The notes beneath the pieces are model-generated. The model made no database searches, was not told where the DNA came from, and saw nothing but the letters and a program-made list of their open reading frames with translations. This document shows, piece by piece, positions 25,330 through 64,000 of a stretch of 64,000 nt of DNA; positions within the stretch are counted from its first letter, which is position 1; each line of letters starts with the position of its first letter. The translations under genes and the position numbers were made by a program. This DNA is from Bacillota bacterium (GTDB taxonomy: Bacteria; Bacillota; DTU030): the NCBI GenBank assembly GCA_012523785.1, contig JAAYTH010000014.1:8995-72994 (forward strand). The letters run 5' to 3'.

Positions 25330-27549
25330 TTGAATTTTGTGGAGATTAGAATTGCTCAACACAGCGGTTTCTGCTATGGTGTAAGGAGGGCCCTGGACCA
25401 AACGGAAAAAGCTGTTCAAAATGGGGAAGGACCTGTTTACACCTGGGGTCCCCTAATTCACAACCCTAGGGTCGTAGCAGACTTGGAAAACAAAGGGGTT
25501 GTTTCCCTAAAGAAATTGACCGGGGTTCCACCGGGGAAACTCATCATACGTGCCCACGGAGCACCACCAGAGGTTTATACACAGGCCCAAGAGCGGGGGT
25601 TCACAATTATTGATGCAACCTGCCCCTCAGTACGAAAATGCCAAAGGATAGCAGCGGATTTGGCCCGGGCCGGGAAAGAGATTGTTGTTGTTGGTCGACG
25701 GGATCACCCCGAAGTCATAGGCATCTGTGGCTGGTCGGGGGACAAGGCTATAGTAATAAGGGATCCCGTTGAAGGACAGGCCCTAACCTTCACTAAACCG
25801 GTGGGGGTTTTGGCCCAGACCACCCAGGAGGAAAAAAACTTCCAAGAAGTTGTTAAGATTTTGCAGAAAAGGGCACCGGAATTGGAAGTTTTCCCAACTA
25901 TCTGTGCAGCCACCCGTTCTAGGCAAGAGGCGGCCCTAGAGTTGGCGGAGGACGTAGATGTAATGCTTGTAATTGGTGCCCAAACCAGTGCCAACACCGG
26001 GGAACTGGCCAGATTATGCCGGCAAACAGGTGTTCAAACATATCAGATTGAATCTGCAGCCCAACTGCGCCGGGAGTGGCTGCAAAACAAAGACAGGATC
26101 GGGGTTATTGCTGGAGCTTCAACTCCCGACGTCACCATCGAGGAGGTAATAAGGGTTATGACGGAATTTCAACGGTCAGAAGGAGAAAACATTGAGGACA
26201 TGTACGCCAGTACATTGCGGACACTTGAAGAGGGGGATATCATTTCCGGAAAGGTTGTCCGCATCGATACTGATGAGGTTTTAGTGGACATTGGTTATAA
26301 ATCAGAAGGGGTTCTCCCCTTACAGGAACTCACCGATAAAACAATTTCTTCCCCGGAAGATATTGTGGCGGTGGGTGATGAGATCGATGTCTATGTCATG
26401 AAGGTGGAAAATAGTGAGGGGAACCCACTTCTTTCCAAAAAGCGGGCCGATTATGAAGGTGCCTGGGTTGACTTACAAGAGGCTTATGGAACTGCCGAAC
26501 CCATCGAAGGGGAAGTGTTGCAGGTAGTTAAGGGTGGGTTAATTATTTTTGTGGGCCTGCGTGCCTTTTTGCCGGCCTCCCAGGTGGGATTGCGCTATGA
26601 ACCAAACCTGGAAAAATATGTCGGCCAAACATTGCGGGTAAGGGTCATCGAATTGGAACGGGCCCGCAATAAGGTGATTGTATCGCAAAAAGTAGTGTTG
26701 GAGGAGGAGCTGGCCGAAAAACGCGCCGCCCTATGGGAAGACTTACTTGAAAACCAAGTGCGGCAGGGCAGAGTAACTAAACTTACCGATTTTGGGGCCT
26801 TTGTCGATTTGGGTGGTATCGAAGGCCTGGTCCATATTTCTGAACTTTCCTGGGCGCGGGTAAAACACCCGTCGGAAGTAGTCCAAGAGGGAGAAGATAT
26901 CGAGGTTATGGTTTTGGGTATCGACCGGGAAAGGGAAAGGATTTCCCTGGGTTTAAAACAAGTCCTACCCGATCCCTGGGAAGGGGTAGGGGAAAAATAC
27001 CCGGTGGATTCGATACAAAGGGGAACTGTTACCCACATCGTCGGCTTTGGGGCCTTCGTCCAGCTGGAACCTGGCGTTGAAGGCCTGGTGCACATTTCCC
27101 AATTAGCAAACTACCGGGTTGCAGAAGCCAGTGATGTGGTAGAGGTTGGGCAGAAGGTAAATGTCAAAATTCTTAATGTGAATGAGGCTGATAGGCGCAT
27201 CAGTTTAAGCATTCGGGAAGTTGACCAGGATATTGAAGAGGATGAATATCTGGAACAGGTGGAAGAAGAGCCCACCGGTGGAATTGTGATTGGCGAGGTG
27301 CTGGGGGAACTTTTGGAAGAAAAAAAGGCGGAAGAGGCTGAAGCCGAAAAAATAGAGGAAGCTGAAAAAGCCGAAACTGGGGAAGTAAAGGAAGCTGAAG
27401 AAGCAGAAACTGATGAAACAGAGGAAGCCGAAGACGCTGAAACTGATGAAACAGAGGAAGTTGAAGAAGTCGGAACTGAAGAAACAGAGGAAGCCGGGGA
27501 AACAGAAGAAAATGAAACAGAGGAAGAAGCCGAGGATGATGAAGAGTAA
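25330..27549 (+). CDS. ispH: fusion protein: 4-hydroxy-3-methylbut-2-enyl diphosphate reductase (IspH/LytB) + ribosomal protein S1 (four S1 domains) + acidic repeat tail
   Basis: N-terminal ~280 aa is IspH (FCYGVRRAL), followed by four S1 domains and a ~80-aa Glu/Thr/Ala-rich tail; TTG start. Confidence 0.85.
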   Translation: MNFVEIRIAQHSGFCYGVRRALDQTEKAVQNGEGPVYTWGPLIHNPRVVADLENKGVVSLKKLTGVPPGKLIIRAHGAPPEVYTQAQERGFTIIDATCPSVRKCQRIAADLARAGKEIVVVGRRDHPEVIGICGWSGDKAIVIRDPVEGQALTFTKPVGVLAQTTQEEKNFQEVVKILQKRAPELEVFPTICAATRSRQEAALELAEDVDVMLVIGAQTSANTGELARLCRQTGVQTYQIESAAQLRREWLQNKDRIGVIAGASTPDVTIEEVIRVMTEFQRSEGENIEDMYASTLRTLEEGDIISGKVVRIDTDEVLVDIGYKSEGVLPLQELTDKTISSPEDIVAVGDEIDVYVMKVENSEGNPLLSKKRADYEGAWVDLQEAYGTAEPIEGEVLQVVKGGLIIFVGLRAFLPASQVGLRYEPNLEKYVGQTLRVRVIELERARNKVIVSQKVVLEEELAEKRAALWEDLLENQVRQGRVTKLTDFGAFVDLGGIEGLVHISELSWARVKHPSEVVQEGEDIEVMVLGIDRERERISLGLKQVLPDPWEGVGEKYPVDSIQRGTVTHIVGFGAFVQLEPGVEGLVHISQLANYRVAEASDVVEVGQKVNVKILNVNEADRRISLSIREVDQDIEEDEYLEQVEEEPTGGIVIGEVLGELLEEKKAEEAEAEKIEEAEKAETGEVKEAEEAETDETEEAEDAETDETEEVEEVGTEETEEAGETEENETEEEAEDDEE
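27340..27549 (+). repeat. imperfect tandem ~27-nt coding repeats encoding the acidic tail
   Basis: Repeated units of the form gaaac(t/a)gatgaaacagaggaagccgaag; they produce spurious ORFs on both strands. Confidence 0.6.
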
Positions 27550-38776: not shown

Positions 38777-38853
38777 CGGGGTATAGCTCAGTTTGGTAGA
38801 GCGCTAGCATGGGGAGCTAGAGGCCAGCGGTTCAAGTCCGCTTACTCCGACCA
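38777..38853 (+). tRNA. tRNA-Pro (anticodon GGG), CCA encoded
   Basis: Hand-folded cloverleaf: 7-bp acceptor stem, D-arm GCTC/GAGC, anticodon loop ATGGGGA, T-arm AGCGG-TTCAAGT-CCGCT, discriminator A, CCA. Confidence 0.85.
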
Positions 38854-39199: not shown

Positions 39200-40312
39200 T
39201 TGCCCCACAAGGTTATACACTTATTAAGTATTGCCGCCGGGGGAATCTACCGCCATGTTTTTGATCTTAGCCAGGGGTTAGACCGGGGGGTGTTTTCCCC
39301 GGTCGTGGTGGCCTCACGGTATAATACTTGGTTAGATAAGCCCCCCGGGCGGGGTGTTAAGGTTATTCCCCTTGATATCTGCCGGCGGGAGAATCCCCTG
39401 TTGCCGACGGGGGATTTGCTAAAATTAATATATTTTTTTCAGGAGGAAAAAATAAAGATACTGCATGTACACGGTTTTCGGGCTGCCTTCTGGGGTAGAG
39501 TGGCCGCCCGGCTGGCCGGGGTACCAGTTGTTATTTACACCGTACATAATTTTCCTGTCAATAGGGCCGCCATTGTATATGGCATCGAAGGATTATTAGC
39601 TAATTGGACTACCCATATAATTACGGTATCTGGTGCCTTGCAGGGGAAACTTATCCAGCGGGGTATTCCTTCCGGGAAGGTGACAACTATCCACAATGGT
39701 GTTAAGGCGGCAGAGGTACCGGAGGCTATTATTAAAACTAAAACCAGACGGTATTATAACATCGGCACTGTTGGCCGCCTGGTAGAATTAAAGGGTATTG
39801 AGTATTTTCTCCGGGCGGCTGCCACCGTGGCTGCTGTTGAACCCCGGGCCAGGTTCTATGTTATTGGCGATGGTCCCCGACGAAGCCGCCTGCAGGTCCT
39901 GGCCCATAAGCTGTCTTTAGACGGTGTGGTGTTTTTTACTGGCCATGTGGATAATATGGATAGGTGGTGGCAGGGCCTGGACGTTCTAGTTTCTTGTTCC
40001 CTCCAGGAAGGACTGGGTTTAAGTATTTTGGAAGCAATGGCGGCTTCTATTCCGGTCGTCGGCACCCGGGTGGGGGGGATACCAGAGCTTATTACCAATG
40101 GACTAAATGGTGTTTTGGTTAGACCGAGGGATAGTCAGGCCCTGGCCACTGCAATTTTAGATCTGCTCTTTAATCGCGACTGGAGAACCAGCTTGGGTAG
40201 AAGGGGCAGGGAAAAGGTTTTGGAAAAATTCACCTTGGAGAAAATGGTTACGGCTGTGGAAGGGATCTATCACCAATCATTGCAGAATCTAGGAAGTAAA
40301 GTGAATGAGTAG
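39200..40312 (+). CDS. glycosyltransferase family 4 (GT-B, retaining)
   Basis: GT4 C-terminal motif region (E-x7-E) and an N-terminal Rossmann half; TTG start. Confidence 0.75.
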   Translation: MPHKVIHLLSIAAGGIYRHVFDLSQGLDRGVFSPVVVASRYNTWLDKPPGRGVKVIPLDICRRENPLLPTGDLLKLIYFFQEEKIKILHVHGFRAAFWGRVAARLAGVPVVIYTVHNFPVNRAAIVYGIEGLLANWTTHIITVSGALQGKLIQRGIPSGKVTTIHNGVKAAEVPEAIIKTKTRRYYNIGTVGRLVELKGIEYFLRAAATVAAVEPRARFYVIGDGPRRSRLQVLAHKLSLDGVVFFTGHVDNMDRWWQGLDVLVSCSLQEGLGLSILEAMAASIPVVGTRVGGIPELITNGLNGVLVRPRDSQALATAILDLLFNRDWRTSLGRRGREKVLEKFTLEKMVTAVEGIYHQSLQNLGSKVNE

Positions 40313-42491
40313 ACGGTTATCTTTTATACTTATTGTAATTGGCCTTCTGTGCCTGATGGGCTTTTGGCAGCCGGGGTCGATCAATGCTGCTGGTAGAGAT
40401 AAGAGGGTGATAGTTTTTGTTCTAGATTCCATTAGTATAACGGATTTGTGTGCGGCTATGACCCCTACTATTGATATGCTTATTGATGTGGGTGCCATGG
40501 GTCTAATGAATACAAGCACCTACTCAGGCTCGGCCCGAAATGCTGCCCACTTAACAATAGGGGCGGGGGCCCGGGCCAGTGGTGGTGATGGCCTGGAACC
40601 GGCCTTGGAAATTGGAGAGGAGTGGGGGGGGATCCCGGCGGGGGAGGTATACCGTAACCGGATGGGGCTGATACCCGGGGGTAATATTGTTCACTTGGGC
40701 ATGGCTGAGATTATCGCTGGCAATAGTGGCCTGGCGGCGACGGTTTTACCCGGCGCCCTGGGGCAGACCCTTGCCGATGCTGGCTATACAAGCAGTTTGC
40801 TGGGTAATAGTGATGTTCCCGGTATGCCAAGGCGCCCGGCGGCGGGTATAGTAATTGACTTCACCGGTGTGGTAAAAGATGGTGCTATCGGATCGGATCT
40901 TTTGGGGGAAAATGCCACAGCCCCCTATGGTTTGGAAACGAACATTAATTCTTTACTGGGGGCCCTACATAAAACAACGGATAGTTCTTTACTGGTAATA
41001 GAGTGGGGGGATACCGCCCGGGTTGATGGTTATAGTAGATATTTGCTCCCGGAAGTGGCCGTTGCAGCCCGGCGTCGGGCCGTAGAAAGGGCTGATGAGT
41101 TTCTGGGGGAATTATTAAAAGGCTTGGATCTGGAAGAAACACTACTTTTACTCCTTACCCCCTCACCGGCGATAGGTGGTTATCAAAAAGGAGAACGATT
41201 GACACCAATAATAATGGCCGGGGCGGGTACTGGCACCGGTCTATTATCATCACCCACAACCCGGCGGGCTGGGCTGGTGGCCAACGTAGATGTTGCCCCC
41301 ACCATTATCCGCTTTTTCCAACTAGCTCCACCCTCTACTATGATGGGTAGACCGATGAAGATTGTCCCGGGAGATAATGCACCTGAAACCCTTTCTGCCC
41401 TGGGAGATATTTTCCAAAGGAATTTTGCCTTCCGGCCTATCGTGATCAGGACTTATATTATCTTCATTATTGCAGTTCTTGCCGGTACTACCGGGGCCAT
41501 CTACCGGCCGGGGAGATGGAATTCCCTTGGAGCCCAACTCCTAATTGCTGTTGCTGCTGTTCCCTTGATACTGCTGCTGCTCCCCCTACTAGCACTAAGA
41601 AAGTTGGATATTACACTGTTGGTAATAGCTATTACTACATTTTTGCTGGTTAAACTGGTCTACCGGAAAAAAAACAACCCCCAGCCCTTTATTGTTTTGG
41701 GTCTACTTACCGTGGGCTTGCTGTGGTTGGATTTAGTTTTGGGCCAATCCTTATTGCTTAAATCCCTTTTGGGGTACTGTCCCATCAGCGGTGCCCGCTA
41801 CTATGGAATGGGGAATGAATACATGGGCCTGTATCTGGGGGCGGGATTAATTGGCTGGAGTGGGTTGGCGGGGGAGATAAATACCGCTGGCAGGCGGATA
41901 AATCCTTTTTTTATTGTCCTGCCCGGTTATTTATTCTTGTTACTGTTTATAGCCTCTCCCCGCCTGGGGGCCAATTTTGGAGGCACAATTGCCACCATGT
42001 GGGGGGGTGGTACTACTATCATTTGCTTACAAAAACAAAGGGCACGAAGGAGGCAATTGCTTATTTGGGTTCTGGGGGGAGTGCTGTTATTGATAGCCCT
42101 TGGATGGGGGGATTATTCTTTGGCTGGTGATGGGGCATCACACCTGGGGCGAACAATTGGCCTAATTATTGGGGCTGGCCCCCGGGAGTTGCTGTTAATA
42201 ATTCAACGTAAAGTGGGAATGAACCTGAAACTGTTAAAATATTCTTGGTGGAGTTTGGTAATATTGGCTGTACTGATCCTTTTTATTCTACTCTCCTATC
42301 GCCCCCCCCGTCTTTTAAAGGATTTAGCCCGAGAATTCCCCGCCCTATGGGCAGGTTTTATCGGCAGTGGGATAGGGGCCTTTGTGGCATTTTTAGTGAA
42401 TGATTCCGGGGTCGTTGCCGGGGCAACAGTCTTGATTTTTCCTGTGACTACACTTTTGTTTTTACTGCTGCAGGCCGGGGGCAAAACCTAG
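40305..42491 (+). CDS. large membrane protein: signal peptide + ~330-aa extracytoplasmic domain + ~10 TM C-terminal domain; function unknown
   Basis: 728 aa; ATG overlaps the GT4 stop (translational coupling). The N-domain has a VFVLDSISITD motif that weakly resembles the alkaline-phosphatase-superfamily metal site. Confidence 0.5.
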   Translation: MSRRLSFILIVIGLLCLMGFWQPGSINAAGRDKRVIVFVLDSISITDLCAAMTPTIDMLIDVGAMGLMNTSTYSGSARNAAHLTIGAGARASGGDGLEPALEIGEEWGGIPAGEVYRNRMGLIPGGNIVHLGMAEIIAGNSGLAATVLPGALGQTLADAGYTSSLLGNSDVPGMPRRPAAGIVIDFTGVVKDGAIGSDLLGENATAPYGLETNINSLLGALHKTTDSSLLVIEWGDTARVDGYSRYLLPEVAVAARRRAVERADEFLGELLKGLDLEETLLLLLTPSPAIGGYQKGERLTPIIMAGAGTGTGLLSSPTTRRAGLVANVDVAPTIIRFFQLAPPSTMMGRPMKIVPGDNAPETLSALGDIFQRNFAFRPIVIRTYIIFIIAVLAGTTGAIYRPGRWNSLGAQLLIAVAAVPLILLLLPLLALRKLDITLLVIAITTFLLVKLVYRKKNNPQPFIVLGLLTVGLLWLDLVLGQSLLLKSLLGYCPISGARYYGMGNEYMGLYLGAGLIGWSGLAGEINTAGRRINPFFIVLPGYLFLLLFIASPRLGANFGGTIATMWGGGTTIICLQKQRARRRQLLIWVLGGVLLLIALGWGDYSLAGDGASHLGRTIGLIIGAGPRELLLIIQRKVGMNLKLLKYSWWSLVILAVLILFILLSYRPPRLLKDLAREFPALWAGFIGSGIGAFVAFLVNDSGVVAGATVLIFPVTTLLFLLLQAGGKT

Positions 42492-42698: not shown

Positions 42699-43766
42699 AT
42701 GAATAGAAGTAGAGACTTATTGCGGGAATTAACTGCTGCAGCGGGCGTATCGGGATTTGAGGGTGAGGTGAGGCGGATAATGCGGGAACGATTGGCCCCC
42801 CTGGCCCACATTGAGCTGGATCGCTTGGGGTGCATCATTGCCCAAAAAACCGGTGATAGGGAAAACCCCACAGTAATGCTGGCTGCCCACATGGACGAAA
42901 TAGGTTTTATGGTAAAGGCTATTACTGCGGATGGTTTTTTACGCTTTACCCCCTTGGGTGGCTGGCCGGAACAGGTCCTTTTGGCCCAAAGGGTCATCAT
43001 AAAAGGTAGGAATGGCGATGTACCTGGTGTCATTGGTTCTAAACCGCCCCATCTGATGGACCGGGAAGAGCGGAAAAAGATGGTGAAAATTAAGGATATG
43101 TTTATTGATGTGGGGGCCAAGGATAGGAAGGAAGTTGACTCTTTTGGGATTAGACCCGGGGATCCGATTGTCCCGGTGGAGAGTTGGGAGGCAATGAAAA
43201 ACGAAAAATTTATAATGGCCAAAGCTATAGATGATCGGGCGGGCTGTGGCCTTTTGATAGAGGTATGTGAAAAATTAAAGGACAATGATCATCCCAACAC
43301 TCTTTATGCCGTCGGTACGGTCCAGGAGGAGGTTGGCACCAGGGGGGCGGCGACCAGTGTGGCAGTAATTGATCCTGATGTTGCTTTGGTTTTGGATGTC
43401 AGTATTGCCACAGATGTACCTGGTTTGAAGGAAGAGGTTGAGGGAAAACTGGGTCAGGGGCCTACCATCGGCTTATACGATTCCTCCATGATACCGAATA
43501 TTAAGTTGCGGGATCTTTGTATACAGACAGCGAAGGAGTATAATATTCCCTATCAATATTCTATTATGGAGGGTGGCGGTACTGATGGGGGCAGAATACA
43601 CCTTCATGGTACCGGGGTCCCCAGCCTGGTTATTGGTGTCCCAGTTCGCTATATCCATAGCCATGTGGGTATTATGCACCTCGACGATTACCTGTGGGCC
43701 CGCCAGCTCTTGGTTGAATTGATAAAAAAATTAGATACTGAGACTACAAAAAATCTAATAAAGTAA
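42699..43766 (+). CDS. M42 family (TET/FrvX/YsdC-type) aminopeptidase, paralog 1
   Basis: M42 signature (LAAHMDEIGF, DDRAGC, EEVGTRGA). Confidence 0.8.
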   Translation: MNRSRDLLRELTAAAGVSGFEGEVRRIMRERLAPLAHIELDRLGCIIAQKTGDRENPTVMLAAHMDEIGFMVKAITADGFLRFTPLGGWPEQVLLAQRVIIKGRNGDVPGVIGSKPPHLMDREERKKMVKIKDMFIDVGAKDRKEVDSFGIRPGDPIVPVESWEAMKNEKFIMAKAIDDRAGCGLLIEVCEKLKDNDHPNTLYAVGTVQEEVGTRGAATSVAVIDPDVALVLDVSIATDVPGLKEEVEGKLGQGPTIGLYDSSMIPNIKLRDLCIQTAKEYNIPYQYSIMEGGGTDGGRIHLHGTGVPSLVIGVPVRYIHSHVGIMHLDDYLWARQLLVELIKKLDTETTKNLIK

Positions 43767-45894: not shown

Positions 45895-46953
45895 TTGGTG
45901 GATCTTGATATTTTACGCCGCCTTTCGGAAGAAGCCGGGGTATCAGGTTCAGAGCTGAAGGTGGCGGAGGTAATTATGGAAGCATTACGCCCCTATACCG
46001 ACAGTGTGGCTAGGGATATATTGGGCAATGTGATTGCCCTCAAGAAGGGGGAAGGGGGCCAACCCCGCCCCCGGGTGTTGTTGGCAGCCCATATGGATGA
46101 GATTGGCCTTATGGTTACCAGGGTGGAGGAGGGGGGATTTTTACGATTTACCACCGTAGGAGGAGTGGATGTACGGACCCTTTTGGGACAAGAAGTTATT
46201 GTCCACGGGGTACACTCTTTGCCGGGGGTCATCGGAGCAAAACCGCCCCACCTCCAGACACCGGACCAAAGAAAGGAGACAATTACAGGGGAGAAATTGT
46301 ATATAGACACCGGGTTTAAAGACAAGGAAAAATTGGAGCAGATAGCTCCCATTGGTACTGTGGCCACAATAGATAGGAACTTGCAATTACTTACCGAGGG
46401 GCGCGTGGCCGGAAAGGCATTGGATAATAGGGCTGGGGTTATGGTACTGCTAGGATGCCTGCAGGAATTAATGGGCATTAAACACTGTGCTGATGTGTAT
46501 GGGGTGGCAACCATCCAAGAGGAAGTGGGGATTAGGGGTGCCATCACCAGTACTTATAAGATCAATCCAGATTTGGGCATTGCTATAGATGTCTGCCACG
46601 GTGATATGCCCGGCACCCGGGGGGACGAAGGATATCCCCTTGACAAGGGTCCGGCCATTGGTTGTGGGCCCCATGTGCATCACCAGCTCTTTAGGGCTCT
46701 GAAGGATAGTGCCGAAAGGGTGGGTATTTCCTATCAGATAGAACCCTCACCAACTCCGGCGGGAACCGATGCCTGGGGAATCCAGATTGCCCGCAGTGGA
46801 ATCCCGACGGCACTAATTTCAATTCCCCTGCGCTATATGCACACATCAGTGGAAACCATATCCACAAGGGATCTTTATGAAACTACCCGCCTGCTAGTGG
46901 CCTTTATCCAAGGTCTGAAGTCTTCCTTTGTGGAGGGATTATTGTGTTACTAA
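45895..46953 (+). CDS. M42 family aminopeptidase, paralog 2
   Basis: LAAHMDEIGLMV, DNRAGV, QEEVGIRGA. Confidence 0.8.
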   Translation: MVDLDILRRLSEEAGVSGSELKVAEVIMEALRPYTDSVARDILGNVIALKKGEGGQPRPRVLLAAHMDEIGLMVTRVEEGGFLRFTTVGGVDVRTLLGQEVIVHGVHSLPGVIGAKPPHLQTPDQRKETITGEKLYIDTGFKDKEKLEQIAPIGTVATIDRNLQLLTEGRVAGKALDNRAGVMVLLGCLQELMGIKHCADVYGVATIQEEVGIRGAITSTYKINPDLGIAIDVCHGDMPGTRGDEGYPLDKGPAIGCGPHVHHQLFRALKDSAERVGISYQIEPSPTPAGTDAWGIQIARSGIPTALISIPLRYMHTSVETISTRDLYETTRLLVAFIQGLKSSFVEGLLCY

Positions 46954-47972
46954 AAAGACTATCTGCGGCCTTTGGACCACCCGGGCAAGAGGGTGAGGTC
47001 CGGGACCTGTTGCGACGGGAAATAGGCCCCTATGTAGATAAGATCTGGACCGATGCTTTGGGTAACCTCTTGGCGGAAAAAAAGGGATTGGAAGAAGGGG
47101 CTCCCCGGGTTATGTTAACAGCCCATATGGATGAGGTTGCCCTTATGATAACCCATATAGAAGATACCGGCCTTCTGCGGTTTAAAACCATGGGGGGCAT
47201 TGACCAAAGAATATTAGTTTCCAAACCGGTTGTGGTGGGTGTGAAAAAAGTGCCGGGGGTTATAGGGTCGAAGGCGATACACCTGGTGACACCGGAGGAA
47301 AGGAAGAGGGCCTTCATGCTGCGGGATCTTTACCTAGACATCGGGGCCAGCTCCAGGGAAGAGGCAGAAAAACTGGTGACAGTTGGTGAAGGTGCAGTTT
47401 TTAACTCCTCTTTTTGCCTCCTAGGTGACAATCGGGTCCGGGCTAAGGCTTTAGACGACCGGGTGGGATGTTCTGCCTTGGTGGAGATTTTGCAAAGACA
47501 GTATCCGGTGACTTTAATCGCTGCCTTTACGGTACAGGAAGAGGTGGGCCTTAGGGGTGCTAGGGTGGCAGCCTTTGGCAAGGATATTGATTTAGCCCTT
47601 GTTTTGGAAGCAACTATGGCCTTTGATGTGCCTGATTCCAAACCCCATGAGACGGTGACCTACCTTGGAGGGGGCCCGGCCTTGACAATTATGGATCGCA
47701 CCCTCATTGCTGATCCTGCTTTGCTTGCTTCTTTGAGGAAAACGGCTCGGGAACGGAAAATTCCCTATCAACTACGCCGAACCGGTACCGGGGGAACCGA
47801 TGGTGGGGCTATCCATCTTACAGAAGATGGAATACCCACGGTGGTGATGGCTGTCCCCTGTCGTTATCTGCACTCTCCGGCTTCAGTCATAGAATTAAGT
47901 GACTACCACCATTTGGTGGATCTGACAAGTGCATTCTTGTCGGAGCTGACGGAAGGGAGGGCTGACAAATAA
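46944..47972 (+). CDS. M42 family aminopeptidase, paralog 3
   Basis: LTAHMDEVALMI, DDRVGC, QEEVGLRGA; GTG start overlapping the upstream gene. Confidence 0.8.
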   Translation: MLLKRLSAAFGPPGQEGEVRDLLRREIGPYVDKIWTDALGNLLAEKKGLEEGAPRVMLTAHMDEVALMITHIEDTGLLRFKTMGGIDQRILVSKPVVVGVKKVPGVIGSKAIHLVTPEERKRAFMLRDLYLDIGASSREEAEKLVTVGEGAVFNSSFCLLGDNRVRAKALDDRVGCSALVEILQRQYPVTLIAAFTVQEEVGLRGARVAAFGKDIDLALVLEATMAFDVPDSKPHETVTYLGGGPALTIMDRTLIADPALLASLRKTARERKIPYQLRRTGTGGTDGGAIHLTEDGIPTVVMAVPCRYLHSPASVIELSDYHHLVDLTSAFLSELTEGRADK

Positions 47973-48970
47973 TGAAAAACATATTGCAACGGCTAATATA
48001 TGCCTTCGGACCCTCGGGAAAGGAGGAGGAGATCCGTTCAGTTTTGAAAGAAGAACTGGCTGTTACAGGCCTGCAACTAAAGACCGATGCCCTGGGGAAT
48101 TTGATTGCTACCAAGCCGGGACAGGGTGGGCGCCTTATGTTGGCAGCCCATATGGATGAGATCGGTCTTTTAGTAACCCATATAGATGATAAGGGTTTCC
48201 TTCGCTTTGCCCCCATTGGGGGCCAGGACCCCAGGAATCTCCTCGGCTCCCGGGTGGTATTTGCCGATGGGACCATGGGCACAATTGGTGCTGAAACAAT
48301 CAAGGAAGCTAAAGACCTAAAGATAGACAAACTTTTTCTTGATATAGGTGCTGCCACCAGCGCCCAAGCCGAAGAAATAGTTCAAATTGGTTCCCCGGCG
48401 GTCTTTGCTCCTCATTTTAGCCATCAGGGGGATCGAATTATCGGTAAATCCCTTGATAACAGGGCCGGTTGTGCACTATTGCTGGCAGTCATCAGGGATC
48501 TGCCCCCGGTTGACTACCACCTGGATTTTGTTTTTACGGTGCAAGAAGAAGTGGGTCTACGGGGTGCCCGAACGGCGGCCTATCATCTTCATCCGGATCT
48601 GGCCTTGGCTGTGGATGTAACGCGAACCGGGGATACTCCTGAATCACCGCCTATGGCGGTTGAATTGGGTAAGGGACCTGCTATAAAAATTAAGGACACT
48701 TCCCTCATCAGCCATCCCCGGGTCCGGGACCTGTTAAAGGAGACTGCCCACTCCAGGGGAATTCCCTTCCAATTGGAAGTTCTTGCCCGGGGGGGCACTG
48801 ATGCCGGGTCCATTCATTTGAGCCGGGAAGGTGTTCCCAGTGGCGTCATTTCAATTCCCACCCGTTATGTGCACAGCCCGGCAGAGGTAATAGATTATCG
48901 GGACTTAACAAATGCTGCCAGCCTCTTATCTGCCTTTATGCAGCAGGAGCAATTATTTCCAGATTTATAA
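47972..48970 (+). CDS. M42 family aminopeptidase, paralog 4
   Basis: LAAHMDEIGLLV, DNRAGC, QEEVGLRGA; 1-nt stop/start overlap with the upstream gene. Confidence 0.8.
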   Translation: MKNILQRLIYAFGPSGKEEEIRSVLKEELAVTGLQLKTDALGNLIATKPGQGGRLMLAAHMDEIGLLVTHIDDKGFLRFAPIGGQDPRNLLGSRVVFADGTMGTIGAETIKEAKDLKIDKLFLDIGAATSAQAEEIVQIGSPAVFAPHFSHQGDRIIGKSLDNRAGCALLLAVIRDLPPVDYHLDFVFTVQEEVGLRGARTAAYHLHPDLALAVDVTRTGDTPESPPMAVELGKGPAIKIKDTSLISHPRVRDLLKETAHSRGIPFQLEVLARGGTDAGSIHLSREGVPSGVISIPTRYVHSPAEVIDYRDLTNAASLLSAFMQQEQLFPDL

Positions 48971-49105
48971 AGTTAATCACCAGTTCTATGGAGGGTCTTT
49001 ATTTTCCCGGCCGGTTTTCTTCCCGGGGAAAGGAAATACCTTACCGGAAGGCGAATATCAATCCCAGGGATGCAAAAGGAGAAATTGAATAAGGGGGAGA
49101 TTTTA

Positions 49106-51193
49106 TTGAAAGAGTTTGGGATCCAACAATTGCGAAATGTGGGTTTGATATCCCACGGCGGTGCTGGCAAAACTACTTTAACTGAAGCAATGCTCTTTAA
49201 TTCCGGCGCTACAGATCGCCTGGGCCGCGTGGATGATGGTTCTTCGGTAATTGATTACGATCCAGATGAAATAAAAAGAAAGATTACCCTTAATACCACC
49301 TTAGCCCCTTGCCAATGGCGGGGAAACAAGATCAATGTGGTTGACACACCGGGGTATGCGGATTTTGTCGGTGATGTCAAGGGTTCACTGCGGGTGGTAG
49401 ATGGGGCTATTGTTCTGGTTTGTGCTGTCTCTGGTGTTGAAGTACAGACAGAAAAAGTATGGCACTATGCGGATAAGTACAATTTGCCCAGACTTGTTTT
49501 TGTTAATAAATTAGAGCGGGAGAATGCTAATTTTTTCAAGGCTCTGCAGCAAATCCAGGAACAATTGTCTGGAAAAGCCGTTGCTTTGAATATCCCCCTT
49601 GGTAGTGAGGATAATTTTAAGGGAATTATTGACTTGGTGAACATGCAGGCCCTCATTTATGATAATGAAAAGGGTAAAGGATTTACCACTGCCGAAATAC
49701 CGGCGGAGCTCCGGGGGGAAGCGGAAGAATATAGGGAAAAATTAATTGAGGCTATTGCAGAAACCGACGATGAATTGGTTATGAAGTATTTGGAGGGTGA
49801 ATCCTTCACCCCGGAAGAAATTAATGCGGGCCTGCGGGCGGGCACCCTGGCCCATGATATTGTCCCTGTCCTCTGTGGTTCTGCCTTGGCCAACATGGGC
49901 CTAGAACCACTTTTGGATACCGTTGTGGCCTGTTTGCCCTCCCCCGGAGATGTTGACGCTGTTGTTGGCAGTGACCCGGACACAGAGGAGGAAGTGGAGG
50001 TTGAATTGAGTAAGGATGGTCCTCTGGCAGCCCTGGTATTTAAGACCATGGCCGATCCCTTTGTCGGCAAGCTGACTTACTTCCGGGTTTATTCCGGGGT
50101 GTTTAACTCCGATAGTCAGGTTTACAATGTTAGTAAAAAAAAGATGGAACGGGTGGGACAACTGTTTATTCCCCGCGGCAAGGAACAGGTGGCGGTAAGG
50201 CACATTTCCGCCGGCGATATAGGTGCGGTGGCCCGGTTGCAAGAAACAAGTACTGGGGATACCATTGGTGAAAGGGATAGGCCAATTTTGCTGGCCCCGA
50301 TTGAATTTCCCCGCCCTTCGTACTCTGTAGCCCTTTTTGCCAAATCCAAGGGGGACGAAGATAAACTTGGCACCGGATTGGGAAGGCTGATGGAGGAGGA
50401 TCCAACCCTCACCGTAGCCCAAAATACTGAAACCAGGGAACTCATTCTCTCGGGTATGGGTGATGTTCACCTTGATGTAACCCTGGAACGTTTAAAGCGG
50501 AAGTTCGGAGTAGAAGTAGATACGAAGGAACCCAAGATACCCTTTAGGGAGACTATCCGCAAGGCGGTAAAAGTTGAGGGTAGACACAAAAAACAAACCG
50601 GTGGGCACGGACAATATGGACATGTTTATATTGAAATGGAACCCTTAGCCGAAGGGGAAGGGTTTGTTTTTGAGGAAAGTATTTTTGGCGGTGCTGTTCC
50701 TAGACAGTACATCCCGGCTGTGGAAAAGGGTATCCGGGAGGCTATGGAGGAAGGTATTTTGGCCGGATATCCGGTGGTGGATTTTAAGGTCAACCTCTAT
50801 GATGGCTCCTATCACAGTGTCGATTCTTCGGAAATGGCCTTTAAAATAGCGGCCATACAGGCTTTCCGGAAGGCAATGGAAGAAGCTCAACCGGTATTGT
50901 TAGAACCCATAATGAATCTGGAGGTACTGGTACCGGATGCCTACATGGGTGATGTTATAGGTGACCTCAACTCTAAGCGGGGCAGGATCCTGGGGATGGA
51001 ACCCCAAGATGGGGAACAGCTGGTAAAGGCCCAGGCCCCCCTGACGGAATTATCCAAGTATGCTATTGATTTGAGATCCCTCACCCAGGGCCGGGGAAGT
51101 TTTGAAATGTCCTTTGACCACTATGAAGAAGTGCCAGCCCGTACTGCTGAAAATATTATCGTCCAAGCCCAGAAGGAAAGAGAAGGGGATTAG
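49106..51193 (+). CDS. EF-G-like translational GTPase paralog with non-canonical G motifs
   Basis: EF-G five-domain architecture. G1 is SHGGAGKTT. Switch II reads DTPGY, with Tyr in place of the catalytic His. G4 reads NKLE instead of NKxD. Likely TTG start at 49106 with a GGGGGAG RBS; the track ORF begins at 49070. Confidence 0.75.
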   Translation: MKEFGIQQLRNVGLISHGGAGKTTLTEAMLFNSGATDRLGRVDDGSSVIDYDPDEIKRKITLNTTLAPCQWRGNKINVVDTPGYADFVGDVKGSLRVVDGAIVLVCAVSGVEVQTEKVWHYADKYNLPRLVFVNKLERENANFFKALQQIQEQLSGKAVALNIPLGSEDNFKGIIDLVNMQALIYDNEKGKGFTTAEIPAELRGEAEEYREKLIEAIAETDDELVMKYLEGESFTPEEINAGLRAGTLAHDIVPVLCGSALANMGLEPLLDTVVACLPSPGDVDAVVGSDPDTEEEVEVELSKDGPLAALVFKTMADPFVGKLTYFRVYSGVFNSDSQVYNVSKKKMERVGQLFIPRGKEQVAVRHISAGDIGAVARLQETSTGDTIGERDRPILLAPIEFPRPSYSVALFAKSKGDEDKLGTGLGRLMEEDPTLTVAQNTETRELILSGMGDVHLDVTLERLKRKFGVEVDTKEPKIPFRETIRKAVKVEGRHKKQTGGHGQYGHVYIEMEPLAEGEGFVFEESIFGGAVPRQYIPAVEKGIREAMEEGILAGYPVVDFKVNLYDGSYHSVDSSEMAFKIAAIQAFRKAMEEAQPVLLEPIMNLEVLVPDAYMGDVIGDLNSKRGRILGMEPQDGEQLVKAQAPLTELSKYAIDLRSLTQGRGSFEMSFDHYEEVPARTAENIIVQAQKEREGD

Positions 51194-51218
51194 GGCCGGG
51201 GGTGGGGAGGAAGGTGCC

Positions 51219-51986
51219 ATGCACATACTAGTGACCAATGATGATGGTATTAATGCATCTGGAATAATTAGCCTTGTTAGTGAATTCACCCCCATTGCCA
51301 AGGTAACTGTTGTGGCCCCGGATCGGGAACGCAGTGCTACCGGCCATGCTATTACCTTCCATAAACCACTGCGGGCCGAGGAAGTTCAGCTGGATGTGGA
51401 GGGGGGAGGAAGGGCTTGGGCCGTCAATGGAACGCCCAGCGATTGTGTTAAGCTGGCCATAAAGGCTCTGCTCCCTGAGCCCCCCGATCTAATTGTCTCC
51501 GGGATAAACCGGGGCCCAAATCTGGGAACAGATGTCTTATATTCAGGAACCGTGTCTGCAGCCATTGAGGGCATCTTATTTGGTATTCCTTCCATTGCCG
51601 TTTCCCTGGCGGCCTTTACCGAATGTTCCTTTGCTACTGCCGCCCATATTACCAGAACCTTAATTCATCAAATAGGGGGCAGATCCCTACCCCCCCACAC
51701 TTTATTGAATGTCAATATTCCCCCGCTACCATTGCATAAATTGCGCGGTATAAAGATATCACGCCTTGGGTTTAGGGAGTATAAAAACATTTTTGAAGAA
51801 AGGCGCGATCCCCGGGGACAAATTTATTATTGGCTGGGGGGGCAAGTGGTGGATTGTGATGAGGAATCGGTAGAGGTTGATATTGGAGCGGTTAAAAAGG
51901 GGTATGTTTCTATAACTCCGGTCCATTTTGATCTGACCAATTATGAACTATTGGAGGAAGTCAAAACCTGGGATCTTTCTCTTTAG
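51219..51986 (+). CDS. surE: 5'/3'-nucleotidase SurE
   Basis: SurE N-terminus (ILVTNDDGI). Confidence 0.85.
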   Translation: MHILVTNDDGINASGIISLVSEFTPIAKVTVVAPDRERSATGHAITFHKPLRAEEVQLDVEGGGRAWAVNGTPSDCVKLAIKALLPEPPDLIVSGINRGPNLGTDVLYSGTVSAAIEGILFGIPSIAVSLAAFTECSFATAAHITRTLIHQIGGRSLPPHTLLNVNIPPLPLHKLRGIKISRLGFREYKNIFEERRDPRGQIYYWLGGQVVDCDEESVEVDIGAVKKGYVSITPVHFDLTNYELLEEVKTWDLSL

Positions 51987-52015
51987 GCCAACTGGCACGG
52001 AGGAGGGAAATTGAA

Positions 52016-53074
52016 ATGCACCCTATCTGGTGGGAAGATGGAAAGGTAGTATTAATCGATCAAACCCGGCTCCCCCACCGACGGGAAAACATTTGTTGCT
52101 CTACTTACCGGGAGGTGGGTGAAGCAATTAGGGGGATGCAGGTCCGGGGAGCACCGGCCCTGGGGGTGGCGGCCGCCTTTGGCTTCGTTTTGGCTGCCCG
52201 GGAATATGCAAACTTGTCCCGGGAATTGTTTCATAAACGGTTAGATGAGGTTGCCACCGCCTTGGCTGCCACACGGCCAACGGCGGTTAACCTTTTCTGG
52301 GCCCTGGACAGAATGCAGAAGGTCGCTGCCGAATATGTTGGCACTGATCCGCATATAATCGCTAATGAGTTGGAAAAAGCTGCCTTGGAATTGGCTACAG
52401 AAGACCGGGAAAACAATCGTCTGATTGGCAGATTTGGCCTTCAATTGGTTTGTCCCAATGCATGTATCCTCACCCACTGTAATGCTGGAGCCCTGGCAAC
52501 GGCAGGCTATGGAACCGCCTTGGGAGTTATCCGGGCCGCCCAGGAGGCAGGAAGGGTGGAGCGGGTCTATGTAGATGAAACGAGACCCCTATTGCAGGGT
52601 GCCCGTCTGACCGCCTACGAACTGCTAGAAGAAGGTATCCCAACTACTCTTATAACGGATAGTATGGCCGGTTACGTCCTACAACAGGGAATGGTGGACC
52701 TGGTTATAGTGGGGGCTGATCGAATTGCCGCTAATGGCGATGTGGCCAATAAAATTGGTACATACAGCCTGGCTGTTTTAGCCCAAGCAAATGATGTCCC
52801 CTTTTATGTGGCTGCCCCAGTATCAAGCTTTGATTTCCAACTTACCAACGGCGCACAAATTCCCATCGAAGAAAGAAGGCCCCAAGAGGTAACCCATTTT
52901 AGAGGGCAACCTGCTGCCCCAGTTGGGGTAGATGTCTTCAACCCAGCCTTTGATGTTACCCCAGCTGAATATATAACTGCCATTATAACTGAGGTGGGAA
53001 TATTGAAACCGCCTTATAAGGTGGGAATTGAGGAGTTAAAGGTACAGAGCAGAATGAAGGATGGCAATGGATAG
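52016..53074 (+). CDS. mtnA: S-methyl-5-thioribose-1-phosphate isomerase (eIF-2B alpha/beta/delta family)
   Basis: MtnA family similarity. Confidence 0.85.
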   Translation: MHPIWWEDGKVVLIDQTRLPHRRENICCSTYREVGEAIRGMQVRGAPALGVAAAFGFVLAAREYANLSRELFHKRLDEVATALAATRPTAVNLFWALDRMQKVAAEYVGTDPHIIANELEKAALELATEDRENNRLIGRFGLQLVCPNACILTHCNAGALATAGYGTALGVIRAAQEAGRVERVYVDETRPLLQGARLTAYELLEEGIPTTLITDSMAGYVLQQGMVDLVIVGADRIAANGDVANKIGTYSLAVLAQANDVPFYVAAPVSSFDFQLTNGAQIPIEERRPQEVTHFRGQPAAPVGVDVFNPAFDVTPAEYITAIITEVGILKPPYKVGIEELKVQSRMKDGNG

Positions 53075-63691: not shown

Positions 63692-63766
63692 TGGTTGGGG
63701 CGGTAGGGGTCGAACCTACGCATACAGGATCCAAAGTCCCGTGCCTTACCGCTTGGCTACGCCCCA
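63692..63766 (-). tRNA. tRNA-Gln (anticodon UUG)
   Basis: Hand-folded: U1:A72, anticodon loop CTTTGGA, T-arm GTAGG-TTCGACC-CCTAC, CCA encoded. Confidence 0.8.
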
Positions 63767-63772
63767 ATATGG

Positions 63773-63859
63773 TGGTGGAGAGGGCTGGATTTGAACCAGC
63801 GAAGGCTTTGCCAGCAGATTTACAGTCTGCCCCCTTTGGCCGAACTTGGGTACCTCTCC
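63773..63859 (-). tRNA. tRNA-Tyr (anticodon GUA), class II long variable arm
   Basis: GGAGAGG acceptor, anticodon loop CTGTAAA, long variable arm and a TTCAAAT T-loop; close to bacterial tRNA-Tyr. Confidence 0.85.
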
Positions 63860-63871
63860 TTTTTAATGTAA

Positions 63872-63946
63872 TGGTGGGCCCACCTGGGATCGAACCAGGG
63901 ACCGACCGGTTATGAGCCGGCTGCTCTACCGCTGAGCTATGGGCCC
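63872..63946 (-). tRNA. tRNA with CAU anticodon (elongator Met or lysidine-modified Ile2; not initiator)
   Basis: G1:C72 acceptor, anticodon loop CTCATAA, and no 3-GC initiator signature in the anticodon stem. Confidence 0.8.
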
Positions 63947-63949
63947 GCG

Positions 63950-64000
63950 TGGTCGGAGCGACTGGATTTGAACCAGCGACCCCTTGCTCCCGAAGCAAGT
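63950..64000 (-). tRNA. tRNA-Pro (anticodon CGG), 3' portion only - truncated by window edge
   Basis: The reverse complement gives anticodon stem-loop CTTGC-TTCGGGA-GCAAG, T-arm GCTGG-TTCAAAT-CCAGT and acceptor 3' CGCTCCG-A-CCA, similar to the Pro(GGG) tRNA at 38777. Confidence 0.5.

Follow-up and report, generated by a model that had tools for sequence, protein, structure and literature searches.

An EF-G2-type paralog of elongation factor G, assigned to the Clostridia sub-group of EFG II, in a Bacillota genome

In canonical translational GTPases, the switch II histidine, the P-loop aspartate and the isoleucine of the hydrophobic gate serve ribosome-activated hydrolysis; the P-loop aspartate holds a monovalent cation and is adjoined by the gate isoleucine, the aspartate of the G4 motif NKxD reads the guanine base, and the domain IV loops of elongation factor G (EF-G) reach into the decoding centre. 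The EFG II (EF-G2) subfamily has been described as having a relaxed G2 motif, a G3 motif reduced to DxPG and domains I-III that are more diverged than domains IV-V (Margus, Remm and Tenson, 2011; PMC3150367). Its signatures include a leucine at position 25 that is 99% conserved and a glycine at position 16 that is 86% conserved (PMC3150367), the EFG I states at these positions being threonine and alanine, respectively, and glycine also stands at the position of the P-loop aspartate (Atkinson, 2015, under the name 'EFGII'; PMC4342817). The G2 consensus of the Clostridia sub-subgroup is RxxSI. Whenever just one EF-G gene was present in any of 305 surveyed genomes, it was of the EFG I type.

The characterised EF-G2 proteins differ in their reported activities. 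T. thermophilus EF-G-2 is reported to possess both intrinsic and ribosome-dependent GTPase, as well as poly(Phe) and translocation activity. In M. smegmatis EF-G2, Tyr98 is turned from the gamma-phosphate, and the protein has no ribosome-dependent GTPase. B. thetaiotaomicron EF-G2 (fusA2) is described as lacking GTPase in the title of Han et al. (2023; PMC9841332); its gene is induced 238-fold on carbon limitation and is required for fitness.

The window analysed here is a stretch of 64 kb from a Bacillota contig, in which we followed up an earlier sequence-only reading of an EF-G-like gene (Table 1). Its open reading frame, read directly from the DNA, runs from the TTG at 49106 to the TAG ending at 51193, i.e. 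696 codons including the stop and a protein of 695 aa; the sequence-only reading, which had given 696 aa from the TTG, had the start right, and its length is that of the 695 residues plus the stop. The TTG is favoured over an ATG at 49070, since homologs measure 690-697 aa, and an identical 695-aa protein from a Bacillota MAG is found at NCBI (P0001), where it is named 'elongation factor G'. A Pfam search of the protein returned GTP_EFTU, EF-G_D2, EFG_III, EFG_IV and EFG_C, all intact, in agreement with the five EF-G domains described earlier. The two motifs that had drawn attention were confirmed as well: gtt gac aca ccg ggg tat gcg gat ttt (49340-49366) encodes VDTPGYADF and aat aaa tta gag (49505-49516) encodes NKLE. 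Compared with the 90%-identical ortholog of a related genome (L001), the gene as a whole has a dN/dS of approximately 0.05, with values of 0.07 for the G domain and 0.006 for domain IV, and purifying selection on it is strong.

Table 1. Features of the EF-G2-type gene and of the adjoining surE gene (positions within the 64-kb window)
Feature	Position	Strand	Remarks
fusA2-like gene, EFG II / EF-G2-type EF-G paralog	49106..51193	+	695 aa; TTG start, TAG stop
Shine-Dalgarno GGGGGAG	49093..49099	+	6 nt before TTG; read from sequence
G1/P-loop S16-HGGAGKTT-L25	49151..49180	+	canonical AHIDAGKTT-T; Gly-Gly where Ile-Asp stands
G2/switch I RKITL	49277..49291	+	canonical RGITI; Mg-coordinating Thr kept
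G3/switch II DTPGYADF	49343..49366	+	Tyr84 (TAT, 49355-49357) replaces catalytic His
G4 NKLE	49505..49516	+	Glu137 (GAG, 49514-49516) where NKxD has Asp
G5 region GSALANMG	49877..49900	+	canonical GSALKNKG
Domain IV	50531..50890	+	Pfam EFG_IV; EF-G-type tip loops
Domain IV tip loop KQTGGHGQYGHV	50591-50626	+	EF-G type
Domain IV tip loop LYDGSYHSVDSSEMAFKIA	50795-50851	+	EF-G type
surE (5'/3'-nucleotidase)	51219..51986	+	NCBIfam SurE 325 bits; starts 25 nt after EF-G2 stop

The motifs AHIDAGKTT, RGITI, DTPGH and NKxD of canonical EF-G are all altered in the window protein; the changes in the P-loop and in G2 come in addition to those noted by the sequence-only reading. It is without the switch II histidine (Tyr84), the P-loop aspartate (Gly19) and the isoleucine of the hydrophobic gate (Gly18), and it keeps the nucleotide-binding scaffold, namely GKT, the switch I threonine, DxxG, the Asn-Lys of G4 and the SA of G5. 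The tyrosine had been taken for a special loss in this gene, which proved mistaken, as Tyr or Phe is the normal state of a large and long-described family. Position 84 is Tyr in 95 and Phe in 24 of the 119 closest homologs and His in none of them, and the corresponding counts across 80 species genomes are Y50 F26 D4 H0. The phylogeny sample consisted of 150 representatives of 50%-identity clusters, and 139 non-canonical and 13 canonical sequences were scored for motifs; the His position is Tyr in 69 and Phe in 31 of the 139, and Asp, Ala and Leu are also tolerated. By these counts, Tyr84 is a hallmark of the EFG II / EF-G2 family and no peculiarity of the window gene. Neither Tyr84 nor NKLE is a sequencing error, because Tyr or Phe is found in 119/119 homologs, NKLE also occurs in an independent protein (P0002) and dN/dS is 0.05.

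The remaining G-domain positions follow the same family pattern. The P-loop pattern xH(G/S)(G/S)xGKT is present in 119/119 nearest homologs, and glycine occupies the P-loop Asp position in 97/139 representatives, as does Gly19 here. Leucine at position 25, also found in the window protein, is shared by 116 of the 139 non-canonical representatives, whereas 8 of the 13 canonical ones have threonine. At the Thr position of G2, serine is found in 106/139 representatives, and the window protein keeps the threonine. Thus Leu25, Gly19, a relaxed G2 with Thr, DxPG with Tyr84 and more diverged domains I-III are all shared with EFG II; measured against T. thermophilus EF-G, the G domain is 43%, domain II 47% and domain III 44% identical, while domains IV and V reach 60% and 62%. 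The one EFG II feature that differs is Gly16, which is Ser16 here, as in 94/119 close homologs and 23/139 representatives; Gly16 is better regarded as variable than as a strict feature, because its published conservation is just 86% and serine is the second commonest state.

A neighbour-joining tree of 148 sequences, built without the full-length characterised EF-G2 proteins (1WDT, 9K0Z, 7UVP), groups the canonical EF-Gs (11 in this tree, 13 among the 150 representatives) in a clade with 100/100 bootstrap support and places the window protein outside it. Among the NCBIfam models, NF009381 (PRK12740.1-5; NCBI name 'elongation factor G') matches best, with 998 bits against a cut-off of 583, and the equivalog model NF009377, 'elongation factor G-like protein EF-G2', gives 680 bits, below its cut-off of 890. 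These two are sister models of the PRK12740 series. The canonical EF-G model TIGR00484 is also passed (849 bits, cut-off 659) despite the non-canonical motifs, so that an HMM score alone is not discriminating. Raw PDB scores are no guide to membership either, because even divergent EFG II proteins score best with slowly evolving canonical EF-G; a PDB query with such a divergent member still ranked canonical EF-Gs first. When only the G-domain core (residues 16-140) was compared, the window protein scored 321 with T. thermophilus EF-G-2 (1WDT) and 298 with T. thermophilus EF-G. Judged by its motifs and its position in the tree, the window gene is a member of the EFG II (EF-G2) subfamily, belonging to the little-diverged 'Clostridia' sub-group of a family that has already been described. 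The substitutions are real but ordinary for EFG II / EF-G2, and they represent no new kind of biology.

The gene lies directly upstream of surE, mtnA and mtaD, in the order given by the sequence-only reading, and three tandem M42 peptidase genes precede it. surE has its own ribosome-binding site GGAGGAAGG, and no terminator-like site was found between it and the EF-G2 gene, with which it is probably co-transcribed. Around the EF-G2 gene, searches for promoters and terminators produced no more matches than shuffled sequence, and no leader RNA turned up near it in an Rfam scan. Of all the neighbours, surE is the only one to recur widely: in 30 of the 80 species loci examined it lies no more than 6 kb from the EFG II gene, whereas mtnA and mtaD are linked only in close relatives. 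We rejected the idea that mtnA, mtaD and the M42 peptidases are functionally linked to the gene, as only relatives that are at least 81% identical have them as neighbours. As surE is itself part of a larger syntenic block (queCDE-folE-lepB-surE-EFGII ... ctsR-mcsB-clpC), its linkage is just a weak hint of function and may represent conserved gene order instead. Note also that some NCBIfam models name surE 'stationary phase survival protein'.

Neither the str operon (rpsL, rpsG, tuf) nor a canonical fusA was found in the 64-kb window. As only these 64 kb of the genome were covered and canonical fusA was unseen, one could suppose that the gene encodes the only, housekeeping EF-G of this organism, or that it is a decaying pseudogene. 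Either is hardly credible, since every genome with a sole EF-G in the 305-genome survey had the EFG I type, the open reading frame is intact with dN/dS of 0.05, and a related genome (L047) carries both types on one contig, with a His-type EF-G gene 8 kb from its EFG II gene. The earlier statement that we are dealing with an EF-G paralog and not with housekeeping fusA is supported: the protein falls outside the canonical clade, the gene has no str-operon context, and the protein carries the EFG II signatures. For annotation, the consequence is that a protein which would not be the housekeeping factor scores above the 'EF-G' cut-off of TIGR00484 and bears the name 'elongation factor G' in databases.

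The sequence-only reading had joined the losses of the histidine and of the G4 aspartate, and its call for an ortholog survey has now separated them: Tyr or Phe is family-wide, whereas Glu is sporadic. NKLE is common to P0001 and to the independent, 92%-identical P0002, but the 90%-identical L001 reads GAC, i.e. Asp, at position 137, and NKxE occurs in 4/119 close homologs, 7/80 species and 9/139 representatives. On this distribution, Glu137 is a recent and sporadic single-base change at the third codon position (GAC to GAG), uncoupled from Tyr84. It is conservative, the carboxylate being kept, and most likely tolerated without change in guanine specificity. NKLE and Tyr84 might instead shift nucleotide specificity, for example to ATP, XTP or (p)ppGpp, and set the protein of this lineage apart from other EF-G2; the G4 aspartate is after all the guanine reader, YchF/Ola1 has NxxE for NKxD together with altered specificity, and Glu137 is real, as it is present in both P0001 and P0002. 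Such a shift appears very unlikely, given that the asparagine, the lysine and the carboxylate of G4 are retained and that the exchange arose by one transversion at the third codon position, which 90%-identical relatives lack. NKxE is moreover sporadic in unrelated EFG II lineages, which is the pattern of a tolerated variant and not of an adaptive shift.

Domain IV is very strongly constrained, as its dN/dS shows, and its loop residues vary little or not at all among the 139 family representatives. The conservation of these loops and of the nucleotide-binding scaffold fits a factor that docks, in the manner of EF-G, at the A site and the GTPase-associated centre of the ribosome. The suggestion that the protein could be a ribosome-protection factor found no support. 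In favour of a ribosomal protection protein resembling Tet(M)/Tet(O), or of an EF-G that only recycles, such as spirochaete or mitochondrial EF-G2, one can cite the five-domain EF-G-like architecture, the position of the gene outside the str operon and the leucine after the P-loop, which Tet(M) has too. Nevertheless, both are most improbable: the NCBIfam model tet_protect (NF012153) gives 377 bits against a cut-off of 775, with all specific Tet models far below their cut-offs, Tet(M) keeps DTPGH, and the domain IV loops are of canonical EF-G type. As for recycling, mitochondrial EF-G2 has retained the catalytic histidine along with conserved G motifs, and the mycobacterial protein is unable to recycle ribosomes.

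On balance, we think it probable that the window protein represents EFG II, an ancient accessory paralog that exists beside the str-operon EF-G, and that with a weak or uncoupled GTPase it acts as a starvation-linked slow translocase or ribosome-occupying factor. GTP hydrolysis by the window protein would then be weak, or uncoupled from activation by the sarcin-ricin loop, and the protein, which would not be the main translocase, might serve as a slow, low-cost translocase or occupy ribosomes under energy or nutrient limitation, as has been reported of the Bacteroides and mycobacterial EF-G2. The GTPase-impaired ribosome binder proposed earlier, in a role under stress, matches two of the three characterised EF-G2 proteins, those of M. 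smegmatis and B. thetaiotaomicron; T. thermophilus EF-G-2 keeps the GTPase. Loss of the histidine by itself is no proof of GTPase loss, because this protein has DAPGY and is active. It had been allowed that the Y/E clade might already be known with ordinary GTPase, which is so in part, for T. thermophilus EF-G-2 combines the Tyr with GTPase activity. Since it also shares the Gly P-loop, sequence alone cannot settle GTPase competence, and impairment of the window protein is plausible.

Alternatively, the window protein could serve as a spare or condition-specific EF-G with full competence for ribosome-dependent GTP hydrolysis and translocation, as in T. thermophilus EF-G-2; Tyr84 or another group would then allow hydrolysis. 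The T. thermophilus protein, with DAPGY, GHAGSGKTT and TKLD, reportedly shows both GTPase activity and poly(Phe) synthesis, the window protein is of the least-diverged EFG II type (50% identical to T. thermophilus EF-G, with domains IV and V conserved), and its G domain is under purifying selection (dN/dS 0.07). We nonetheless regard full competence as somewhat doubtful, as the H88Y exchange in mycobacterial EF-G1 nearly abolishes GTPase. Furthermore, the family tolerates Phe, Asp, Ala and Leu at position 84 and has a relaxed G4, which makes it less likely that residue 84 has a precise role in catalysis. Going beyond the weak or uncoupled GTPase that we favour, it is conceivable, though unlikely, that Clostridia-type EFG II proteins, which approach canonical EF-G in length and in domains IV-V but are without the catalytic His, the P-loop Asp and the gate Ile, are GTP-binding translocases that work without hydrolysis, by a route unlike the Bacteroides insertion, and that NKLE might also loosen base specificity here. 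If true, a hydrolysis-free translocase would offer a low-cost mode of translation to Bacillota that live strictly anaerobically and starved of energy, as syntrophs or acetogens.

EF-G2 proteins currently attract interest as translation factors of starvation and stress that may save GTP. To our knowledge, the Clostridia sub-group, which is nearest to canonical EF-G, has no characterised member. It would offer a clean way to find out which of the few changes in the G domain (His to Tyr, Asp to Gly, Ile to Gly) turn a fast GTPase EF-G into a slow factor.

With EFG II as described (PMC3150367), the window protein shares five domains without large indels, the Gly P-loop, Leu25, a relaxed G2 (RxxS/TI), DxPG and a location outside the str operon; it differs in having Ser16 and not the consensus Gly, Thr and not Ser in G2, and Glu and not Asp at the end of G4. 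T. thermophilus EF-G-2 (1WDT/2DY1) is its best partner in the G-domain core and has in common with it Tyr for His, the Gly P-loop, Leu25 and DFVGE/D, the G3 stretch of the T. thermophilus protein being DAPGYGDFVGE. That protein is however shorter (665 aa), and over the full length the window protein scores 528 bits with it, against 741 with canonical EF-G. M. smegmatis EF-G2 (9K0Z/9K10), an accessory paralog for which a stress-associated role has been proposed, reads DTPGYADFVGE where the window protein has DTPGYADFVGD. It is far more diverged, with GPSGGGKTT, TKLD, G2 and G5 that are not conserved, 31% identity to E. coli EF-G and a shorter C-terminal helix, whereas the window protein keeps the P-loop His, the Arg, Ile and Thr of G2, and G5.

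B. thetaiotaomicron EF-G2 (BT2167; 7UVP/8DMF) is likewise an accessory EF-G paralog, but has 718 aa and the G2 motif YGYSV, and the NCBIfam model EFG2_Bacteroid gives 611 bits for the window protein, below its cut-off of 1000. An EF-G2-specific segment of about 26 residues reportedly accounts for the missing GTPase of the Bacteroides protein; there is no room for it in the 695-aa window protein, which aligns to T. thermophilus EF-G without large indels. With canonical EF-G (EFG I) the window protein shares approximately 50% full-length identity (T. thermophilus), a level of similarity to solved EF-G structures that leaves its fold beyond doubt, and highly conserved domains IV and V. With E. 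coli EF-G, the characterised EF-G2 proteins share about 31-34% identity; the window protein lies much nearer to canonical EF-G than they do.

The EF-G2 gene encodes 695 residues from a TTG start, and an identical protein is found at NCBI (P0001, from a Bacillota MAG) under the name 'elongation factor G', probably because it passes the cut-off of TIGR00484. All five EF-G modules are recognized by Pfam (GTP_EFTU with G', domain 2, EFG_III, EFG_IV and EFG_C). The sequence-only reading had pointed out a Tyr replacing the switch II His and an NKLE G4 motif, and the corresponding codons are confirmed in the DNA. Two further departures had not been mentioned there: the P-loop reads SHGGAGKTT-L (canonical AHIDAGKTT-T), and G2 reads RKITL (canonical RGITI). 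Relative to the 90%-identical ortholog of the related locus L001, dN/dS amounts to 0.05 over the whole gene, with 0.07 in the G domain and 0.006 in domain IV, and the gene is thus functional and strongly constrained.

Features of the window and of the related Syntrophomonadaceae locus L047
Feature	Coordinates	Strand	Remarks
Lysine riboswitch RF00168	9166-9351		108.6 bits; upstream of ORF 9469-10809
ispH/ribosomal protein S1 fusion gene	25330-27549		NF000907, 788 bits
tRNA, single	38777-38850	+	
728-aa ORF	40305-42491		Adjoins GT4 glycosyltransferase gene; no Pfam/NCBIfam match; 733-aa product without Pfam match at the equivalent place in related loci L081 and L082
Four M42-family aminopeptidase paralogs	42699-43766, 45895-46953, 46944-47972, 47972-48970		
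Shine-Dalgarno GGGGGAG		+	6 nt before TTG start of EF-G2 gene
EF-G2 ORF	49106-51193	+	TTG start
DTPGYADF (switch II/G3)	49343-49366	+	Tyr84 = TAT 49355-49357
NKLE (G4)	49505-49516	+	Glu137 = GAG 49514-49516
surE	51219-51986	+	ATG start, 25 nt past EF-G2 stop; SurE model alignment and GGAGGAAGG ribosome-binding site
tRNA cluster	63695-64000	-	At least four genes; last one cut by window end
His-type EF-G	L047:1-1902		RGITV, DTPGHVDF, NKMD; truncated at locus start
EFG II gene	L047:10001-12049		

The best 150 hits were kept from a full scan with HMMER against 1.84 billion cluster representatives. The canonical motif set (AHIDAGKTT, RGITI, DTPGH and NKxD, all complete) is present in 13 sequences and absent from 139, the window protein included. 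When 148 sequences were placed in a neighbor-joining tree, a bipartition with 100/100 bootstrap support separated the 11 canonical EF-Gs, among them that of Thermus thermophilus, from the window protein. The 139 non-canonical sequences carry Gly at the P-loop Asp (97), Leu after GKT[TS] (116) and Ser (106) or Thr (31) in G2. These signatures are those published for EFG II, namely G1 'GhxxxGKT', Leu25 conserved at 99%, G3 reduced to 'DxPG', and a relaxed G2 with the consensus RxxSI in the Clostridia sub-subgroup (Margus et al., 2011; PMC3150367). On its motifs and tree position, we assign the window protein to the EFG II (EF-G2) subfamily. Its per-domain identity to T. thermophilus EF-G is 43, 47, 44, 60 and 62%, and domains I-III of EFG II are described as more diverged than IV-V (Margus et al., 2011). 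The G-domain core (residues 16-140) scores best with T. thermophilus EF-G-2 (PDB 1WDT, 321; canonical T. thermophilus EF-G, 298). At full length canonical EF-G is preferred (741 bits versus 528 for EF-G-2), as it is for a distant EFG II member, because canonical EF-G evolves slowly and the published placement of the Clostridia group is close to the EFG II root (Margus et al., 2011). Among NCBIfam models, the protein belongs to the PRK12740 series (NF009381, 998 bits); neither the EF-G2 equivalog NF009377 nor the Bacteroides EF-G2 model reaches its cut-off. The Tet models score far under theirs, and a Tet-like protection factor or a recycling-only factor is very improbable.

At the switch II His position, none of the 119 nearest homologs in the database (56-100% identity) has His; 95 carry Tyr and 24 Phe, so that the substitution is real and beyond chance or error. 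Tyr and Phe are likewise general in 80 species-representative genomes (Y50, F26, D4, H0) and in the non-canonical set (Y69/F31/D10), and Asp, Ala and Leu are also accepted within the family. NKLE recurs in the independent, 92%-identical sequence P0002; 90%-identical relatives have GAC (Asp) where the window has GAG. Glu137 is a third-position GAC to GAG change later than the split from these relatives. NKxE occurs in seven of the 80 species (independently in Moorellales and several Syntrophomonas lineages) and in 4/119 close homologs; in the 139 representatives, the first G4 position is Asn in 112, the second Lys in 89 and the last Asp in 121 or Glu in 9. A change of nucleotide specificity through this Glu, as can accompany NxxE in YchF/Ola1, is possible but unlikely, given that the G4 Asn and Lys are retained and that NKxE is distributed like a tolerated variant.

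All or nearly all large ORFs of the window lie on the + strand. The gene had been placed outside the str operon, and indeed no rpsL, rpsG or tuf occurs within the 64 kb; surE, mtnA and mtaD follow it as had been stated, then a C26 peptidase gene, while ddl and three tandem M42 genes, whose start and stop codons overlap or adjoin one another, precede it. This M42 arrangement is conserved in 81-90%-identical relatives (L001, L081, L082). Although the mechanical surE ORF (51102-51986) begins at TTG 51102 and overlaps the EF-G2 3' end, the SurE alignment and the ribosome-binding site point to ATG 51219 as the true start. The order in 81%-identical relatives is M42 (three genes), EFG II, PHP, surE, PNP, mtnA, mtaD; the window lacks both the PHP-domain gene that these relatives have ahead of surE and the PNP_UDP_1 (MTA phosphorylase-like) gene that they have ahead of mtnA (L081:12107-14861 versus window 51193-52016). 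Moorella mulderi, too, has a PHP-domain gene behind its EFG II gene (L011:12455-13306). The only recurrent neighbor is surE, no farther than 6 kb away at 30 of the 80 loci and mostly upstream in the same orientation; since it is part of a larger block (queCDE, folE, lepB, surE, EFG II, then ctsR-mcsB-clpC), the linkage is a weak functional hint. In L047, a 3.8-Mb contig, a His-type EF-G lies 8 kb upstream of a Tyr-type EFG II in the same orientation; this His-type gene is apparently outside any str operon, since radical-SAM, signal peptidase and surE genes come after it. Across 305 genomes a lone EF-G gene was invariably of EFG I type, and that the window protein is the organism's sole EF-G, or a pseudogene, is scarcely credible.

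The nucleotide-binding scaffold is whole (GKT, switch I Thr, DxxG, G4 Asn-Lys, G5 Ser-Ala) and the domain IV tip loops are EF-G-type and near-invariant across the family, which fits EF-G-like ribosome binding. The protein lacks the switch II His, the P-loop Asp, which binds a monovalent cation in canonical translational GTPases (Atkinson, 2015; PMC4342817), and the P-loop Ile. The latter is part of the hydrophobic gate in the canonical activation mechanism. GTP hydrolysis would probably be weak, or uncoupled from sarcin-ricin loop activation; in that case the protein would act as a slow, low-cost translocase, or would occupy ribosomes, when energy or nutrients are short. The variable His position and loosened G4 suggest that the EFG II family is held less tightly to the classical GTPase cycle. 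The His to Tyr replacement in EF-G2 is already known, with structures and mutagenesis, and the Clostridia sub-group has been recognized since 2011; what is new is an uncharacterized EFG II member with a minor, recent G4 variant. To our knowledge, no Clostridia-type EFG II has been studied biochemically. This is the form nearest canonical EF-G, and its biochemistry is the residual interest.

Both solved EF-G2 proteins share the switch II Tyr: T. thermophilus EF-G-2 has GHAGSGKTT-L, DAPGYGDFVGE and TKLD, and Mycobacterium smegmatis EF-G2 (PDB 9K0Z) has GPSGGGKTT-L, DTPGYADFVGE and TKLD. The GTPase impairment proposed earlier is not safely deduced from His loss alone, since T. thermophilus EF-G-2, despite its Tyr, reportedly has intrinsic and ribosome-dependent GTPase and poly(Phe) activity. 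That the window protein is a fully active GTPase of this kind seems rather unlikely, though worth considering, as H88Y nearly abolishes the GTPase of mycobacterial EF-G1. For a weak or uncoupled GTPase, the comparable systems are M. smegmatis EF-G2, in which Tyr98 points away from the gamma-phosphate and which is without ribosome-dependent GTPase, incapable of ribosome recycling and described as stress-specific, and Bacteroides thetaiotaomicron fusA2, whose product is described in a paper title as lacking GTPase activity; carbon limitation raises fusA2 238-fold and lowers fusA 10-fold, and fusA2 is required for gut colonization.
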